Source: a virus. From it: DNA of 13,198 nucleotides. The notes beneath the pieces are model-generated. The model made no database searches. It worked only from the letters and a program-made list of their open reading frames with translations, and was not told where the DNA came from. Positions within the stretch are counted from its first letter, which is position 1. The number at the start of each line of letters is the position of its first letter. Positions 2,485 to 11,470 of this stretch are shown here, piece after piece. The stretch lies in the UHGV virus genome UHGV-2130109; one strand, 5' to 3'. The translations under genes were made by a program, and so were the position numbers.

Positions 2485-3201
<717 letters not shown>

Positions 3202-3271: not shown

Positions 3272-4270
3272 TTGGAAATCAGCACGGCGGTTATTCATTC
3301 CGAAGAAGATGCTTTGCGTTTTGTTGAGATGTACATCGCTGGGCAAGATCTTCCTGATGGAATATCATTTGAAGGGTGGCCTAACTTAACCTTCCGTCTT
3401 ACTGGTGACAAATTTCATGGCAGTTTGACTCCTTCTGTCATGAAGGGTTTTGTTGAAATGCAGGCCCAAATAAACCGAGCTTATGCATTGTTAAAGTACG
3501 GAGTTCCTGACCCAAGAAAGCTTTCAAAAGAAGAGAAGGAAGCTATCGAAATTCAGGTGAATGTTGAGAATGGCTCGTCCTTGATAGAAGTTAATATGGA
3601 TGGGTTCATGGGTGAGGTTATACAAACTGCGGTGAGTAAAGTGGGCCCTCAAGAGATCGTTATTACAGTTTTAGGGGTCGCTCTTATATGGGGCGGCGTC
3701 GTCCTATTCAAAAAATATCTAGAAGACCGCAAAGAGATTCGCATGGCAGAAGTAAAAAGCGAGTCTGAGCGTGAACACCTTGCGACCATGCGCTTCATGT
3801 CTGAGCAGGAAACAAAACGAAGTGAATTATTGACTCAGATTATTAGCGAAAAACCCAAGCTAGACAACATGGAAAGACTTGCTCATGACGCAAAAACCGA
3901 CATAGTTAAATCATTTGTCAAGGCTGATACAGCTCAGATTGATGGCGTTGTATTGGATGCAGATCTATCCAAAACCCTCACTACAAATGCAAGGCGGAAA
4001 TCAATGGAGATCCGCCTTGATGGAAATTATCGCATTGAAAAGGTTGACTCCACTGATCCAGAGAGCTTCAAAGTGCAAGTGAGAAATGTTGACTCCGATC
4101 TAAGAATATCGTGCATAGTACAAGATGTTTTTCTCGACGCATCCGAGCATAAAAAAGCTCTTCAGCAAGCTGAGTGGGATAGAAAACCAGTTCATTTGTC
4201 AATCAACGCAAAAGAACTAGATGGTGAAATAAAGTCCGCGATAATACTTTATGTCAAAGAGATAACATAA
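3272..4270 (+). CDS. Hypothetical single-pass membrane protein occupying the rexA/rexB position downstream of cI; candidate lysogen-expressed exclusion/abortive-infection factor
   Basis: 332-codon ORF with TTG start 7 nt after a GAGG SD. Central hydrophobic helix (IVITVLGVALIWGGVVLF, about residues 129-147), soluble N-terminal domain, charged K/E-rich C-terminal half. AT-rich spacer and low GC relative to cI. I recognise no similarity to RexA or RexB. Confidence 0.6.
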   Translation: MEISTAVIHSEEDALRFVEMYIAGQDLPDGISFEGWPNLTFRLTGDKFHGSLTPSVMKGFVEMQAQINRAYALLKYGVPDPRKLSKEEKEAIEIQVNVENGSSLIEVNMDGFMGEVIQTAVSKVGPQEIVITVLGVALIWGGVVLFKKYLEDRKEIRMAEVKSESEREHLATMRFMSEQETKRSELLTQIISEKPKLDNMERLAHDAKTDIVKSFVKADTAQIDGVVLDADLSKTLTTNARRKSMEIRLDGNYRIEKVDSTDPESFKVQVRNVDSDLRISCIVQDVFLDASEHKKALQQAEWDRKPVHLSINAKELDGEIKSAIILYVKEIT

Positions 4271-4766: not shown

Positions 4767-5150
4767 ATGACACGCAGAACTCAGTTCAAAGGCAATTCAC
4801 GCTCTCATCGTCGTGAGCGTTTAAAGGCAAAGGCATTAGCTAACGGCGTGCTGGCCCGCGAAGAAGCAATAAGTTCAGAAGTATTACACCGCCCTACTCT
4901 AAGCAGAGCGCAGATTCAGGCTAAAGGTACTCACGAAACGCCTGAGCGCATAGAAGACGCTAAGCCAATTAAGTTCATGGCACAGGACGTGATCTGGCAA
5001 CAGAAAGAATACAGACGCAATCTGGAGCGAGCGGCCATTGTGTACGCGAATGAGTTTGGACATAAGCAACCAGAAACTGGTGTATGTCTTCCAAACGTAG
5101 CCATTTACGCGGCAGGCTATCGCAAATCAGGAACAATAACAGCGAGGTGA
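4767..5150 (+). CDS. N: N-like transcription antitermination protein (P22 gene 24 type)
   Basis: 127 aa, first gene of the pL operon, AGGAGG SD. N-terminal arginine-rich motif (GNSRSHRRERLKAKALA) resembles the P22 N ARM (GNAKTRRHERRRKLAIER). C-terminal ..AIYAAGYRKSGTITAR resembles P22 gp24. Confidence 0.7.
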   Translation: MTRRTQFKGNSRSHRRERLKAKALANGVLAREEAISSEVLHRPTLSRAQIQAKGTHETPERIEDAKPIKFMAQDVIWQQKEYRRNLERAAIVYANEFGHKQPETGVCLPNVAIYAAGYRKSGTITAR

Positions 5151-5153
5151 TAA

Positions 5154-5867
5154 ATGACAACGCCTTCAGTTTTGCCGCAAAAATTATGGCGTCCACTTGC
5201 AGAGATTAAAAACTTCGTTGAAAAAATGCCTGATGGCGTTCGACTTACGGAAGTTACTAAAAAAGTTAAGACATTTGCCGAACTGTCAGGCAAGGAGAGA
5301 AACCAGCTCATCGATTTTATCGATAAACGGGAAAGCATCATTGTATTTAAGGTCAGAAAAGAAGGTTCTGGTAACGGAGTAACCTTTTTCCGCCACAAAA
5401 AATATGGATATCCCAAACGGGAAGGAAACGTGACCATCATTAAGGACCTTCAGTCAAAATTATGCACCAGATGCGGGCAGACAAAATCAGTCGATGATTT
5501 TTATTCAGATGCCAGCAAACGTGACGGGAGAGCCATTTATTGTAAGAAGTGCGAATCTGCAATGAAACGCTTGCGCAGAGAATGTAATAAATTAATTCTG
5601 CAACAACAGGAATCTGAAATGAATAACCTCAAAGTAGTTTCACCTTCACCAGAAACACTCAGAAAACAGGCAGAAGAATTGCTGAAAGCCGCCGAAATTG
5701 CGGAGAAAAAACGTCAGGAAGATGATGTATTCAACAAAAAACTCGCGCCCTTAAAACTTGAAATTCTTCAGGCCGCCGGAAAAATGCAGCTTAAACTGGA
5801 CGAGTTCATCGACTGCATGGATGAAATGAATAAAGCGGTTCAGAAACTTAAAGAACTGACCTCCTGA
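5154..5867 (+). CDS. Hypothetical protein with CxxC-x19-CxxC zinc-ribbon motif and coiled-coil C-terminus
   Basis: 237-codon ORF starting 4 nt after the N stop with GAGGTGA SD. Low GC. Motif CTRCGQTKSVDDFYSDASKRDGRAIYCKKC. No family recognised. Confidence 0.6.
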   Translation: MTTPSVLPQKLWRPLAEIKNFVEKMPDGVRLTEVTKKVKTFAELSGKERNQLIDFIDKRESIIVFKVRKEGSGNGVTFFRHKKYGYPKREGNVTIIKDLQSKLCTRCGQTKSVDDFYSDASKRDGRAIYCKKCESAMKRLRRECNKLILQQQESEMNNLKVVSPSPETLRKQAEELLKAAEIAEKKRQEDDVFNKKLAPLKLEILQAAGKMQLKLDEFIDCMDEMNKAVQKLKELTS

Positions 5868-5898: not shown

Positions 5899-6258
5899 AT
5901 GAACGAAACAGAACTGAAGCACATTATCGCCCTGCTTCTGGAAGATGCCCGACAGGTTTATCAACTTAGCCCAAATTCCTCAACGCTGGGACGCATCAGG
6001 ATGGCGGAAGCAGCACTGATACAGGAAAATGAAAACAGCACATCTGAAGTTAGTGCTAATGGTGAAAATGAAGCAATAGAAATAAACAGCAATATCAGCG
6101 ATAGTTGCGTCGCTTACAGCCACCAAATAATTCGTGTAAGTGCAAGAATAATGGAAGTGATGGCAAGTGAGCTTGAAAAGCACAACATCAAGCCCACTGA
6201 TTGTTGTTTAAGAACCGTAATGGACGTTATTTATTACTCGATGTTCCGAAGTCGCTAA
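5899..6258 (+). CDS. Hypothetical protein (119 aa)
   Basis: ORF directly following 5154-5867. Weak SD. Low GC. No family recognised. Confidence 0.45.
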   Translation: MNETELKHIIALLLEDARQVYQLSPNSSTLGRIRMAEAALIQENENSTSEVSANGENEAIEINSNISDSCVAYSHQIIRVSARIMEVMASELEKHNIKPTDCCLRTVMDVIYYSMFRSR

Positions 6259-6658
6259 CAGCTGCGAGTTTTTTCATCAAAAAAGGATTCAAATGCGTCG
6301 TAAAATACGGCAATAGCACCGCCCCTATCTACCGCGGCAGGAACTGCCTTTTGAGGTATTTTTTCTTCCCTGAATTGTGTGTTGTAGGTATCAACAGCCA
6401 GTCGCATCAGAAACATTGCCTTTTCTTCTTATGTCATAAATTCACCCTCCTTACGGGGTTGTAGTTAAGGAGTTCTCCACGGGTCAGGTGGAGTTCGTGC
6501 GCCGGACACGGGTGTGAATCCGGCAATCTCAGTTTACTGAACAGATATTCCCCTGAAAAGCCAGGGCATAACACGAAAGCGCACGGCAAAGCTCGTATAT
6601 CTGTACGGCATCGTTAAATTTTCTTCGACCGTGCGCTTCCGGTTGTGAATAACAACAT

Positions 6659-6716
6659 TGCTGTGTGTAGTCATTGGCGGCATCAGTTTATTGCTGGCTG
6701 ATGTCCGCCCTTTTTT
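6659..6716 (+). ncRNA. dicF: DicF-like small RNA (cell-division-inhibiting sRNA family) ending in an intrinsic terminator
   Basis: ...TTGGCGGCATCAGTTTATTGCTGGCTGATGTCCGCCCTTTTTT shares the UUGGCGG(U/C)AUCAGUUU core and the CCGCCC-U-run terminator with E. coli DicF as I recall it (UUUCUGGUGACGUUUGGCGGUAUCAGUUUUACUCCGUGACUGCUCUGCCGCCC). Preceded by about 200 nt of ORF-poor, hairpin-rich sequence. The 5' end is approximate. Confidence 0.45.
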
Positions 6717-6892
6717 AAAGTGAATTTTGTGATGCGGTGAATGCGGCTAAGCGCACGCGGAACAGTTAAACCGACAGGATGTCACGGCAAGTCATCATCC
6801 CCTGACCCGGCGTTAATTGTTAACTGGTTAACGTCACCTGGAGGCACCAGGCACCGCATCAACAAAGTTCATTTGTGAAAATGGAGATAATT

Positions 6893-7114
6893 ATGATTGC
6901 TCATCACTTCGGGACTGATGAAATACCACGTCAGTGCGTGACACCTGGCGATTATGTTCTTCATGAAGGCCGCACATATATCGCTTCAGCAAACAATATT
7001 GAAAAGAGAAAGCTCTATATTCGTAACTTCACGACAAAAACATGCATTACCGACTGCATGATTAAAGTTTTCCTGGGACGCGATGGTTTGCCTGTAAAGG
7101 CCGAATCATGGTGA
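6893..7114 (+). CDS. dicB: Small protein, possible DicB-like cell-division inhibitor (functional counterpart of lambda Kil)
   Basis: ORF track gives a GTG start at 6875; the ATG at 6893 has a GGAG SD 6 nt upstream. Segment [27 protein letters not shown] is weakly similar to E. coli DicB (INKRKQERELLNKICIVSMLARLRLMPKG, from memory). Lies immediately downstream of the DicF-like sRNA as in the Qin dicF-dicB arrangement. Confidence 0.4.
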
Positions 7115-7651: not shown

Positions 7652-9712
7652 ATGAGCACTGATAAACAAGTTTACCCACTGTATTACGAAGCAAAAAATG
7701 ACAAGGTAAGAAAACGCCTCGGCATTAAAGGCGGTTTTTACTGGGCTGAGGCGAAAAAATTATCCATTGCAATCTCTCGTGGTGCTGTTGCGATTGACGA
7801 TGCGGGCTACGATGAAGATGACTTTAAAAAACCTGTTCGCGTTCATTTGCCCGTCGTAAATGACCTTCCACCGGAAGGAGTGTTTGATACCGAATTCTGT
7901 AATCGCTATGAAAAAGGCGGTAACGATGGCATCACCATGATGGCTATACCCTCCGATGACAACATCAACGGTGAAGATGCCACAACGGCTGACGGTGGCA
8001 ACGATGACCCAGACGGAGCTGTTCCGGGTAATGCGGAGAAAATCGAATCCACAGACAGCGACGATGACTGTATTGACTGTGAAATTCCCGTCGCCACTCT
8101 CAGTCTTACCCATCGTTTCCTTCACCTCTTCTTCTTTAGCAAGGATAAAGATGGAAAATACCGGCATCACGCCACACCAGAACAACGTAATAATGTGATC
8201 CGTCTGGAGATGGACACAGAAGATAGTTACCTTCAGAGCCTGCTTACTGCTGTGCGTTCACATCCAGAGCTGGATAAGCTGACGAATTATCACCTTAGCC
8301 GCCTGGCTGAATCTGTAGGGAAAGCATTCCCCCACTCTGCAAATCATCGCATCAGCCCGGCTGAATTCGACAAGTTCATTTCCACCTGGATGAAAACTGA
8401 CTACCTTGATCAGGGCCTGCTGACAAAAGAATGGCAGAACGGAAATTATGTTTCAGGCATTACCCGTACGCCTTCCGGTGCTAACGCTGGCGGCGGAAAT
8501 ATTACCGATCGTGGTGAAGGATTCAAACATGATAAGACATCACTCGCACGAGATGTAGCCACCGGCGTTCTGGCCCGTTCAATGGATGTGGATATTTATA
8601 ACCTGCACCCAGCACACGCAAAACGCGTTGAAGAAATCGTGTCAGAGAATAAGCCGCCCTTTTCTGTTTTTCGCGACAAATTTATCGCCATGCCCGGTGG
8701 GCTGGATTATTCCCGCGCCATTGTGGTGGCTTCCGTGAAAGAAGCACCAATCGGCATTGAGGCCATCCCGGCACGCGTGACTGAATATCTCAACAAAGTG
8801 TTGACCGAAACCGATCACGCTAACCCGGATCCGGAAATCGTGGAAATTGCCTGCGGTCGCTCATCAGCACCGATGCCGCAGCGCGGAACAGCAGAAGGAA
8901 AACATGGCGATGAAGAAAAGCAACAAACATCGGACACAATGGCTAATGAACAGGCAGCGCCTGAATCAGTGGAAGAAATTCCAGTTAAACATAATGAGGA
9001 CACGCAATCACTGGAAAATGTCTCATCTGTAGAAACGAAATACCAGGAACTGAGGGAGGAACTCAATAAAGCCAGGGAAAACATCCCCCCAAAAAATCCA
9101 GTCGATGCCGACAAATTACTGGCGGCTTCTCGCGGAGAATTCGTTGAAGGTATCAGCGACCCAACCGACCCGAAGTGGGTGAAGGGGATCCAGACTCGCG
9201 ACACTGAAGACCAGAATCAATCCAAAGTGGAACAAAATGAGCCAGAAGCGGAACAAAACAGCCCGGATACGCAACAAAACGGACCAGCAGAGCAACAACC
9301 AGAGCCAGTAGCACAACCGGAGCTGGAAAAATCCTGCCGCGTCTGTGCTCAGACTGGTGGGGGCAACTGCCCTGACTGCGGTCCGGTAATAGGAGATGAA
9401 ACTTACGCTGAAATTTTTGGAGAAAACGGCACATCTGCTGAAGAGAACTCAGCACAAGCGGATGTCCTGGAAAGTTCCGCTGATACAACTCATGAACTCG
9501 AGGCAGTTGCCCGGAATGCTCAGGGCAACAATGCGCCCGACGATAAGGCTGATTCAGAACCAGAAATTCTCGACTGGAAAAGACAGCTCGTGATTGCAGC
9601 CGTCTATGGTTTGTGCGCCAACCCCGCATGTATAGCCACAGCGCCAGCAATCCCTGATATCGCCATCATGATTGCCAACAGGCTTGAAAATTTCGGAGGT
9701 GATAAATCATGA
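7652..9712 (+). CDS. Large acidic protein (686 aa) resembling the N-terminal non-nuclease region of RecE (exonuclease VIII) but lacking a recognisable nuclease domain; C-terminal CxxC-x7-CxxC zinc ribbon
   Basis: Start chosen at ATG 7652 (MSTDKQ..., AGAGG upstream) rather than the track's 7364, which overlaps the preceding gene. Blocks such as [50 protein letters not shown] and [28 protein letters not shown] match my recollection of the E. coli RecE N-terminal region. Stop overlaps the gam start (ATGA at 9709-9712). Confidence 0.6.
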
Positions 9713-10005
9713 ATGCCTGGCTTATCCCCGATCGCATTGAAGAGCAGTCATGGGCACGACACTACCAGCAAATTGCCCGTGAAGAAACTGAAGCTGAGCT
9801 GGCAGACGACCTGGAAAAAGGTCTGCCCCAACACCTGTTTGAATCGCTATGCATCGATAATCTGCAACGTCACGGGGCCAGCAAAAAAGCTATTTCCCGT
9901 GCATTTGATGACGATGTCGATTTTCAGGAACGCATGGCAGAACACATCCGCTACATGGCTGAAACCATCGCCCGTCACCAAATTAATATTGATTCAGAGG
10001 TATAA
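9709..10005 (+). CDS. gam: Gam, RecBCD inhibitor (short form)
   Basis: 98 aa, [50 protein letters not shown]...; near-identical to the lambda GamS region as I recall it. Confidence 0.9.
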
Positions 10006-10010
10006 AACGG

Positions 10011-10796
10011 ATGAGTACAGCACTCGCAACGCTGGCAGGGAAGCTGGCTGAACGTGTCGGCATGGATTCTGTCGACCCACAGGAACTGATTACCACTCTT
10101 CGCCAGACAGCATTTAAAGGTGATGCCAGCGATGCCCAGTTCATCGCACTACTGATCGTCGCTAACCAGTACGGCCTTAATCCATGGACGAAAGAGATTT
10201 ACGCCTTTCCTGATAAACAGAACGGTATCGTTCCGGTGGTGGGTGTTGATGGCTGGTCCCGCATCATCAATGAAAACCAGCAGTTTGATGGCATGGACTT
10301 TGAGCAGGACGATGAATCATGTACATGCCGGATTTACCGCAAAGACCGAAATCATCCGATCTGCGTTACCGAGTGGATGGATGAATGTCGCCGCGCACCA
10401 TTCAAAACCCGCGAAGGCAGAGAAATCACCGGACCGTGGCAGTCGCATCCCAAACGGATGTTACGGCACAAAGCCATGATTCAGTGTGCTCGCCTGGCCT
10501 TCGGATTTGCTGGCATCTATGACAAGGATGAAGCCGAGCGTATTGTCGAAAATACTGCATATACTACAGAACGTCAGCCGGAACGCGACATCACCCCGGT
10601 TAACGAAGAAACCATGTCGGAAATTAACGCCCTTCTTACTTCCATGGAAAAAACGTGGGATGACGACCTGTTGCCGCTCTGTTCCCAGATTTTTCGCCGC
10701 AACATTTACACATCTTCAGAACTAACACAGGCTGAAGCTGTGAAGGTTCTTGGATTCCTGAAACAGAAAGTCACAGAGCAGAAGGTAGCAGCATGA
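10011..10796 (+). CDS. bet: Bet (Red-beta) single-strand annealing protein
   Basis: 261 aa, [98 protein letters not shown]...; essentially lambda Bet. Confidence 0.95.
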
Positions 10797-11470
10797 CACC
10801 GGACATTATCCTGCAACGTACAGGGATCGACGTGAGAGCTGTCGAACAGGGGGATGATGCGTGGCACAAATTACGGCTCGGCGTCATCACCGCTTCAGAA
10901 GTTCACAACGTGATAGCAAAACCCCGCTCAGGAAAGAAATGGCCTGACATGAAAATGTCCTACTTCCACACCCTGCTGGCTGAGGTTTGCACCGGTGTGG
11001 CTCCGGAAGTTAACGCTAAAGCGCTGGCCTGGGGAAAACAGTACGAGAACGACGCCAGAGCCCTCTTTGAGTTCACTTCCGGCGTGAATGTTACTGAATC
11101 CCCGATCATCTATCGCGACGAAAGTATGCGCACCGCCTGCTCTCCCGATGGTTTATGCAGTGACGGCAACGGCCTTGAACTGAAATGCCCGTTTACCTCC
11201 CGGGATTTCATGAAATTCCGGCTCGGTGGTTTCGAGGCCATAAAGTCGGCTTACATGGCCCAGGTGCAGTACAGCATGTGGGTGACACGAAAAGATGCCT
11301 GGTACTTTGCCAACTATGACCCGCGTATGAAGCGTGAAGGACTGCATTATGTCGTGGTCGAACGGGATGAAAAATACATGGCTGGTTTTGACGAAATGGT
11401 GCCAGAGTTCATCGAAAAAATGGACGAGGCACTGGCTGAAATTGGTTTTGTATTTGGGGAGCAATGGTGA
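10793..11470 (+). CDS. exo: Lambda-type 5'-3' exonuclease (Red-alpha)
   Basis: 225 aa, [65 protein letters not shown]...; essentially lambda Exo. ATGA overlap with bet. Confidence 0.95.

Follow-up and report, generated by a model that had tools for sequence, protein, structure and literature searches.

We analysed a stretch of 13,198 nucleotides (nt) of the virus genome UHGV-2130109 (the window) and describe here a small RNA (sRNA) element encoded upstream of the division inhibitor gene kilR, in a part of the window (6259-6892) without any annotated gene. The window corresponds to a lambdoid prophage's early-left (pL) arm. The element lies 3' of the N antiterminator gene and, as a first-pass annotation of the same DNA had proposed, at the position that kil occupies in lambda. 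On the plus strand we detected, in this order, a structured spacer (6440-6566), a large stem-loop (6567-6647), a single-stranded linker (6648-6675), an intrinsic terminator (6676-6716), a leader with its own structured domain (6717-6892) and kilR itself (6893-7114). The linker, written AAUAACAAC|AUUGCUGUGUGUAGUCAUU, holds a predicted RNase E site (6656/6657) followed by a 16-nt seed (6657-6672). Judged by its sequence, the sRNA (6627-6716) is an ortholog of KilS of Escherichia coli K-12 and belongs to the Hfq class. Its longest predicted form measures about 90 nt, beginning at the position homologous to the K-12 KilS transcription start (6627), and the processed form (6657-6716) would measure about 60 nt.

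KilS is annotated in K-12 (b4833), upstream of kilR. It was predicted from RNA interaction by ligation and sequencing (RIL-seq) with Hfq and confirmed by northern blot (Bar et al. 2021, PMC8175672). In K-12, transcription starts at 1418502 and a single RNase E site was mapped at 1418471, which is KilS nt 32; the Hfq-bound RNA is about 98 nt long and the internal RNase E site precedes the seed, all of these data being from K-12 (PMC8175672). In the literature that we searched, which was one library only, KilS was found in this single paper, and no paper linked it to the sRNAs DicF or RprA.

The window and K-12 KilS are 91.5% identical over the 5'-most 59 nt, the entire seed included, and a further 20 of 20 positions agree in the 3' arm and U-tail of the terminator. 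Similarity thus extends over both seed and terminator, and the loop differs, being 8 nt shorter in the window, with UUUAUUGCUGG instead of UUUUUUUCUUGAAGUUCGG. As in the K-12 Rac prophage, the sRNA is encoded directly 5' of the kilR leader and on the kilR strand, and leader and kilR are shared as well. In contrast to Rac, the 200 nt upstream are Qin-type in the window, which has an apparently complete pL operon with N, whereas K-12 KilS resides in a decayed cryptic prophage. The hairpin and T6 terminator reported in the first-pass annotation are present (GGCGGCATCAGTT..GGCTGATG-TCCGCC, then T6; 6676-6716), with the terminator scan and the alignments in agreement; hairpin and U6 tail make up the sRNA's 3' end and are likely its Hfq-binding module. 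The GGCGG/CCGCC base of the stem is conserved, with one C-G to U-A compensatory change among relatives.

No Rfam family matched anywhere in the window at gathering thresholds. A scan of the window at relaxed thresholds gave three matches, all below their gathering scores: DicF (RF00039, 6662-6710, 43.3 bits, gathering 48, E = 5.6e-8), STnc100 (RF02076, 6700-6907, 33.1 bits, gathering 47) and RprA (RF00034, 6597-6719, 32.6 bits, gathering 70, E = 0.084). The DicF model also stays under 48 bits on K-12 KilS (39.1 bits). Given its similarity to KilS and the sub-threshold DicF score of both RNAs, the element is an ortholog of KilS and, in relation to DicF, a paralog and not DicF itself. For annotation, sub-threshold DicF matches beside kilR should be called KilS.

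The spacer at 6440-6566 is homologous to the ydfC-dicF spacer of K-12 Qin, as judged from its sequence, its minimum free energy (MFE) structure and alignment with Qin and Rac, and contains local hairpins at 6475-6493, 6501-6524 and 6551-6566. All structural elements listed in the first-pass annotation were recovered within 1-2 bases of the coordinates given there. Sequence checks placed a CCGGA/TCCGG hairpin at 6502-6506 and 6519-6523 and a CCCTG-AAAAGC-CAGGG hairpin at 6551-6566, and showed AAGCGCACGG at 6577-6586 and CCGTGCGCTT at 6629-6638 to be perfect reverse complements of each other. This long-range pair of 10 base pairs (bp) is the core of a longer helix (6567-6586 with 6629-6647) that closes the large stem-loop in the MFE structure. 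The MFE of 6440-6716 is -98.6 kcal/mol, compared with -81.5 ± 4.8 kcal/mol for dinucleotide shuffles (z = -3.6; 0 of 200 shuffles equal). Pairing of the long-range helix is conserved in 21 distinct relatives, with 89.5% of cells paired against 26-46% in slid-partner controls. Four pairs are altered on both sides (A-U/G-C, G-C/U-A, G-C/U-G), although this covariation mostly separates two haplotypes and therefore represents few independent events. These counts were taken from extracted arms in a clean 21-sequence alignment, since a MAFFT alignment of 113 spacers was too gappy near the Qin-type insertion. The motif AAGCGCACG recurs 3' of the terminator (6750-6758), which could offer the 3' arm 6630-6638 two alternative partners: 6577-6585 and, when transcription reads through, the second copy at 6750-6758.

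In alignment, the spacers of the window, of K-12 Rac (sieB-kilR) and of K-12 Qin (ydfC-dicB) are homologous from end to end and differ by one cassette, located between the anchors CCGGUUGU and UGGCGG. In Qin this cassette includes the 5' arm of DicF and is about 150 nt long; Rac and the window have 26-28 nt in its place. In the window it reads AAUAACAACAUUGCUGUGUGUAGUC and resembles the host sRNA RprA: positions 6657-6672 are identical to RprA nt 60-75 (16/16), and 29 of 34 alignment columns agree over RprA 47-79, with two 2-nt gaps. The local alignment score is 41, compared with 23.6 ± 2.2 (maximum 31) for shuffled RprA against the whole window. K-12 KilS agrees with RprA 50-75 in 25 of 26 columns.

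RprA is itself an RNase E substrate (PMC6202311). Processing by RNase E naturally yields its segment 60-105 (the last 47 nt), where conservation within the RNA is highest and which is enough to repress csgD (PMC3465796, PMC9262595, PMC6202311). Nucleotides 60-97 pair with csgD site I and nucleotides 45-75 with ydaM/dgcM, and compensatory mutations confirmed both pairings (PMC3465796, PMC9262595). The shared 16-mer, AUUGCUGUGUGUAGUC, would occupy the 5' end of the processed form in the window RNA too. In K-12 KilS, the RNase E site (..AACGAC|AUUGCUG) falls at the start of the RprA 16-mer or one base before it, and the context is kept in the window as AACAAC|AUUGCUG. This KilS-type context fits RN|WUU, which is reportedly the RNase E consensus.

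The likeness to RprA thus comprises the seed, about 13 nt 5' of it including the RN|WUU-type context, the order of seed, 3-nt spacer, terminator and U-tail, and the same predicted seed accessibility. It does not extend to the full three-hairpin architecture, for which a score of at least 70 bits would be expected. Unlike RprA, the window sRNA is prophage-borne, lies outside the rprA locus and ends in another terminator. It has neither the 5' stem-loops nor the rpoS-activating region of RprA, nor the anti-csgD sites Ia and II. McaS, another csgD repressor of K-12, carries CA(C/U)UGCUGUGUGUA, complementary to the same site in the csgD leader, whereas the rest of the McaS RNA and its locus are unrelated to the window sRNA. 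Comparison of K-12 mcaS (L193, 1159-1252) with window positions 6655-6668 showed that (C/U)UGCUGUGUGUA is common to McaS, RprA and the KilS-type RNAs. The KilS variants of four relatives (L125, L126, L141 and L094) read CACUGCUG, which changes a G-U pair with csgD into G-C. We gave no weight to a 7-nt repeat of AUUGCUG between seed and loop, since chance would be expected to produce one in an RNA this long.

Duplexes were predicted in 22-nt windows with shuffled-target controls; this replaced full-length duplexfold, which is uninformative for long RNAs because it ignores intramolecular structure. The window RNA is predicted to form 16 contiguous pairs with the csgD leader at -99..-82 (-27.2 kcal/mol, z = -4.2), and nothing above background was obtained for K-12 DicF with csgD in the same prediction. 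Weaker predicted duplexes involve the start codon region of dgcM (-22.5 kcal/mol, z = -1.9) and the 3' end of yncL, the sole reported KilS partner (-23.3 kcal/mol, z = -1.5). The known DicF-ftsZ duplex was recovered for K-12 DicF and not for the window RNA. Opening the seed would cost 1.9 kcal/mol in the processed form, equal to RprA 60-106, and 6.9 to 8.4 kcal/mol in a primary form with a K-12-like start, because there the long helix has only its 3' arm, which folds onto the seed. With the seed masked in the primary transcript and open in the processed one, RNase E processing would activate the RNA. Two further pairings were considered and dropped. Pairing with the rpoS leader as in RprA remained at background, the AACGAAUU element reading AACAUU in the window, and pairing of the seed in cis with the kilR leader was not above chance (-21.6 kcal/mol versus -19.7 ± 2.6 for shuffles).

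The gene that follows was thought in the first-pass annotation to be weakly DicB-like, but its product gave no BLASTP alignment with K-12 DicB at E <= 100. It matches NCBIfam NF008465 ("FtsZ inhibitor protein") with 161.1 bits against a cutoff of 92, over residues 1-73 of 73, and its translation is close to K-12 KilR. RefSeq names the gene kilR in identical DNA. On this similarity the gene at 6893-7114 is assigned as kilR, encoding the 73-amino-acid (aa) FtsZ inhibitor of Rac-type prophages, and not as dicB.

Between terminator and kilR, the leader folds into a domain in which 6718-6739 pairs with 6859-6882 to give a closing helix of about 22 bp. Two inner hairpins lie at about 6809-6835 and at about 6837-6851, and the kilR Shine-Dalgarno sequence GGAG lies just 3' of this domain. 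The leader is STnc100-like: positions 6700-6907 align with the full model of STnc100 (STnc100/PasD prophage RNAs). It differs from these RNAs in being the 5' untranslated region (UTR) of kilR and in scoring below the gathering threshold of the model, as do the leaders of Qin (before dicB, 34.1 bits) and Rac (28 bits). A 2026 preprint that relates STnc100 to PasD makes no mention of KilS, DicF or RprA. For the leaders of K-12 Qin and Rac, the same closing helix is predicted. RNase III generates the 3' end of 72-nt DicF (PMC5069750), and this end maps into the helix's 5' strand, near window position 6730. The helix is thus a likely RNase III substrate, at which cleavage would part the sRNA from the mRNA that follows.

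Among species-representative genomes, an 18-mer of the leader had exact matches in Escherichia and Shigella only, chance matches aside; at least 120 viral contigs contain it as well. We classified 143 loci by seed, hairpin and cargo. They contain at least four seed cassettes, namely the DicF type, the KilS/RprA type, type C (CCCAUGUUGAUUACC) and type D (CCAUGUGUAGU), and at least four hairpin types. Comparison of seed cassettes C, D and E with other Rfam sRNAs gave no mimicry matches. The DicF seed is usually linked to dicB (81 loci) and the KilS seed to kilR (29 loci), and recombinants were detected as well: the DicF seed with kilR (3 loci), the KilS seed with dicB (1 locus) and the KilS seed on a DicF hairpin (2 loci). 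Behind the same leader, about 10 loci carry a third cargo, consisting of the Rfam families isrK (60-64 bits, gathering 50) and then the C4 antisense RNA (77-80 bits, gathering 45), both above gathering and located about 170-420 nt past the leader 18-mer. These relatives (L016, L050, L122, L132, L135, L142, L160, L183, L074 and L102) have neither kilR nor dicB in the slot, and the cargo is a P1 c4/icd-type module.

The distribution speaks against a rare, transplanted Qin module: a KilS-type RNA, at a query coverage of at least 80%, is present in 1828 of 5426 complete E. coli genomes. No annotation lies beneath the KilS-type matches among the matches listed. In K-12 the annotation of KilS comes without an assigned function, and RefSeq omits KilS in almost all other genomes. 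A 93%-identical copy of leader and kil is present in an Stx1c phage. The allele of the window, combining the Qin-type upstream part with the KilS seed and the loop AUUGCUGG, is rare, occurring at 99% identity or more in 4 complete genomes. The element is therefore an ordinary and widespread prophage feature, and the window carries a new allele of a known, barely characterised sRNA family.

We propose that the kilR leader region encodes a KilS-type sRNA that works as follows, and we put the probability of this mechanism as a whole at roughly 0.6. Transcripts from pL or from a weak internal promoter would carry the stem-loop 6567-6647, the A/U-rich linker and the terminator. Polymerase not modified by N would stop at the terminator, which would keep the toxic kilR silent and free an RNA with a defined 3' end. 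RNase E would then cut at AAC|AUUGC (6656/6657), as in K-12 KilS and RprA, leaving an RNA of about 60 nt with the seed free at its 5' end. Together with Hfq, the seed would pair with the csgD 5' UTR at RprA site Ib and with dgcM at its start region. Given a seed equal to that of processed RprA and the predicted pairing at csgD and dgcM, the RNA would be an RprA mimic that lowers curli and biofilm regulators, and would not act on ftsZ. The suggestion in the first-pass annotation that a 5' region differing from that of K-12 DicF could give other targets agrees with this proposal, the DicF 5' arm being replaced by the seed. After induction, N-modified polymerase would read through, KilR would be made and FtsZ blocked, with the leader helix of 22 bp as a likely RNase III site parting the sRNA from the kilR mRNA.

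Several observations weigh against this mechanism. The extended -10 element of K-12 KilS (TGTTAAATT) reads CGTTAAATT in the window, where the hexamer TAAATT is kept (6615-6620) but TG is changed to CG, and our promoter scan of the window detected no plus-strand sigma-70 promoter for the sRNA, which casts doubt on its steady-state expression in the lysogen. The sequence upstream is Qin-type, and in Qin DicF arises by processing. Of the RprA anti-sites the window has Ib but neither Ia nor II, so that csgD could be regulated only weakly. The dgcM and yncL duplexes are only 1.5 to 1.9 standard deviations beyond those of shuffled targets, and several KilS-type relatives have seed substitutions that would weaken pairing with csgD. 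RIL-seq in K-12 gave few partners of KilS (yncL), and csgD was not among them (PMC8175672); csgD is poorly expressed under those conditions.

More tentatively, and with odds that we place below even, the KilS-type RNAs, that of the window among them, may be DicF-family sRNAs whose targeting cassette gave way to a stretch of 26-28 nt that is homologous to host rprA or was captured from it. Carried by a prophage in about one third of E. coli genomes, they would then be mimics of the RprA (and McaS) seed that repress csgD and dgcM and tune curli and biofilm formation, and the locus would be a modular "seed-swap" slot with at least four seeds, at least four hairpins, three division-related cargoes (dicB, kilR and the c4/isrK-icd type) and one conserved leader. 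If this is true, a very common prophage element feeds into the csgD/dgcM biofilm switch via the RprA/McaS site, DicF and KilS are two alleles of one recombining sRNA locus and not unrelated RNAs, and the locus provides a clear case of a mobile element copying the seed of a core sRNA. What our analysis adds is the relation between the DicF and KilS cassettes, the exact RprA seed at the mapped RNase E site and the modular locus, which jointly suggest a concrete and testable function for KilS.

The proposal above has its closest competitor in a purely cis-acting element, where a terminator overcome by N and a processing helix control kilR and the released RNA is a by-product without targets in trans. 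The terminator is strong and lies between N and a toxic gene, all three having the same direction of transcription, and the same terminator and leader precede three cargoes (dicB, kilR and isrK/C4). The lack of a clear promoter of its own in the window also fits, as does the chance-level complementarity of seed and leader, which gives no sign of autoregulation. K-12 kilR is silenced by NusG-dependent termination and toxic on read-through (PMC10798246), which together with the position of the terminator makes it plausible that the terminator also gates kilR here. This role is compatible with an sRNA role. The K-12 ortholog accumulates, binds Hfq and forms RNA chimeras (PMC8175672), and the slot also yields DicF, an sRNA whose action in trans is proven. 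A by-product would moreover be unlikely to keep a validated 16-nt host seed exactly at a mapped RNase E site, and we regard action in cis only as rather unlikely.

That the element is a true DicF, an antisense sRNA against ftsZ in a dicF-dicB-type double division-inhibition module as the first-pass annotation had it, is considerably less probable. The part of that description that stands is a DicF-related sRNA locus with a long structured leader and a division inhibitor gene next; the RNA is not DicF, and the gene, whose product has no similarity to DicB, is not dicB. The DicF core that had been given in support was accurate, TTGGCGGCATCAGTTT (6674-6689) agreeing with K-12 DicF nt 14-29 at 15 of 16 positions. 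Both RNAs occupy the same slot in a homologous spacer 5' of a prophage division inhibitor gene, and share the hairpin base (UUGGCGG.AUCAGUUU ... CCGCCCUUUUU), its flanks and the sequence 3' of the terminator. Maturation is probably the same, by RNase E for the 5' end and by the terminator or RNase III for the 3' end. DicF is also the best Rfam match of the window, although its score compares with 76.7 bits for K-12 DicF, well above the threshold that the window fails to reach. The loop ACUCCG of DicF pairs with the ftsZ Shine-Dalgarno sequence (PMC5069750), and the two DicF regions used for pairing with xylR (5' arm) and with ftsZ/pykA (loop) are both replaced in the window: the loop is UUUAUUGCUGG, and in place of the 5' arm UUUCUGGUGACG the window has the RprA-type seed, within a 28-nt RprA-like cassette instead of the DicF cassette of about 150 nt. 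A duplex with the ftsZ leader is predicted at -51..-27 (-24.3 kcal/mol, z = -3.3), but its position is 5' of the ribosome binding site, and it draws on bases from the terminator stem.

It is highly improbable that the region instead encodes small proteins with RNA structure being incidental: open reading frames (ORFs) of 45 to 51 codons do exist (plus strand 6741-6878; minus strand 6434-6589 and 6534-6683) and in one related phage record the homologous DicF region carries a hypothetical protein on the minus strand, but none of these ORFs has an NCBIfam match or is conserved, relatives differ here by gaps of 5 to 17 nt in the alignment, RefSeq annotates nothing here in an identical genome, and conservation tracks helices and not codons. 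The earlier statement that the region has no plus-strand ORF of 60 codons or more holds for 6465-6720, while an unannotated ORF with a TTG start (6201-6464) touches the start of the region. On the minus strand at 6428-6436, a good Shine-Dalgarno sequence (GGAGGG) precedes an ATG whose frame ends at a stop two codons on (ATGACATAA). In the related prophage L198 the equivalent place has an annotated hypothetical gene of 69 aa, so that the window probably has a disrupted gene at the sieB position.

Elsewhere in the window we identified cII (1752-2048) and cro (2187-2387) on the minus strand, and on the plus strand a cI-type repressor gene (2488-3201), the N antiterminator gene (4767-5150; Pfam PF25694, N_peptide, 48.7 bits), two unnamed genes (5154-5867 and 5899-6258), a RecE-family gene (7652-9712), gam, bet and exo (9709-11470) and an integrase gene (from 12035). 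The RecE-family exonuclease gene stands directly before a complete gam-bet-exo set (lambda Red), so that one operon (7652-11470) encodes two recombination systems. From 4808 to its end, the window is identical to the prophage adjoining ynfG in E. coli 23CRST047, whereas the immunity region 5' of 4808 is unlike that strain, with another cI and a 332-aa ORF at 3272-4270. By this comparison, a recombination junction relative to the 23CRST047 prophage lies just inside N or before N. None of the complete E. coli genomes of the collection matches the whole window. Between cII and a minus-strand ORF of 360 aa (259-1341, no Pfam match), we detected a 113-bp tandem repeat (1373-1683; 2.7 copies, 98% match) with two TTGGTGTGACTGCACA per unit. 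It could represent a group of operators, or else an array of the iteron or origin-like kind.

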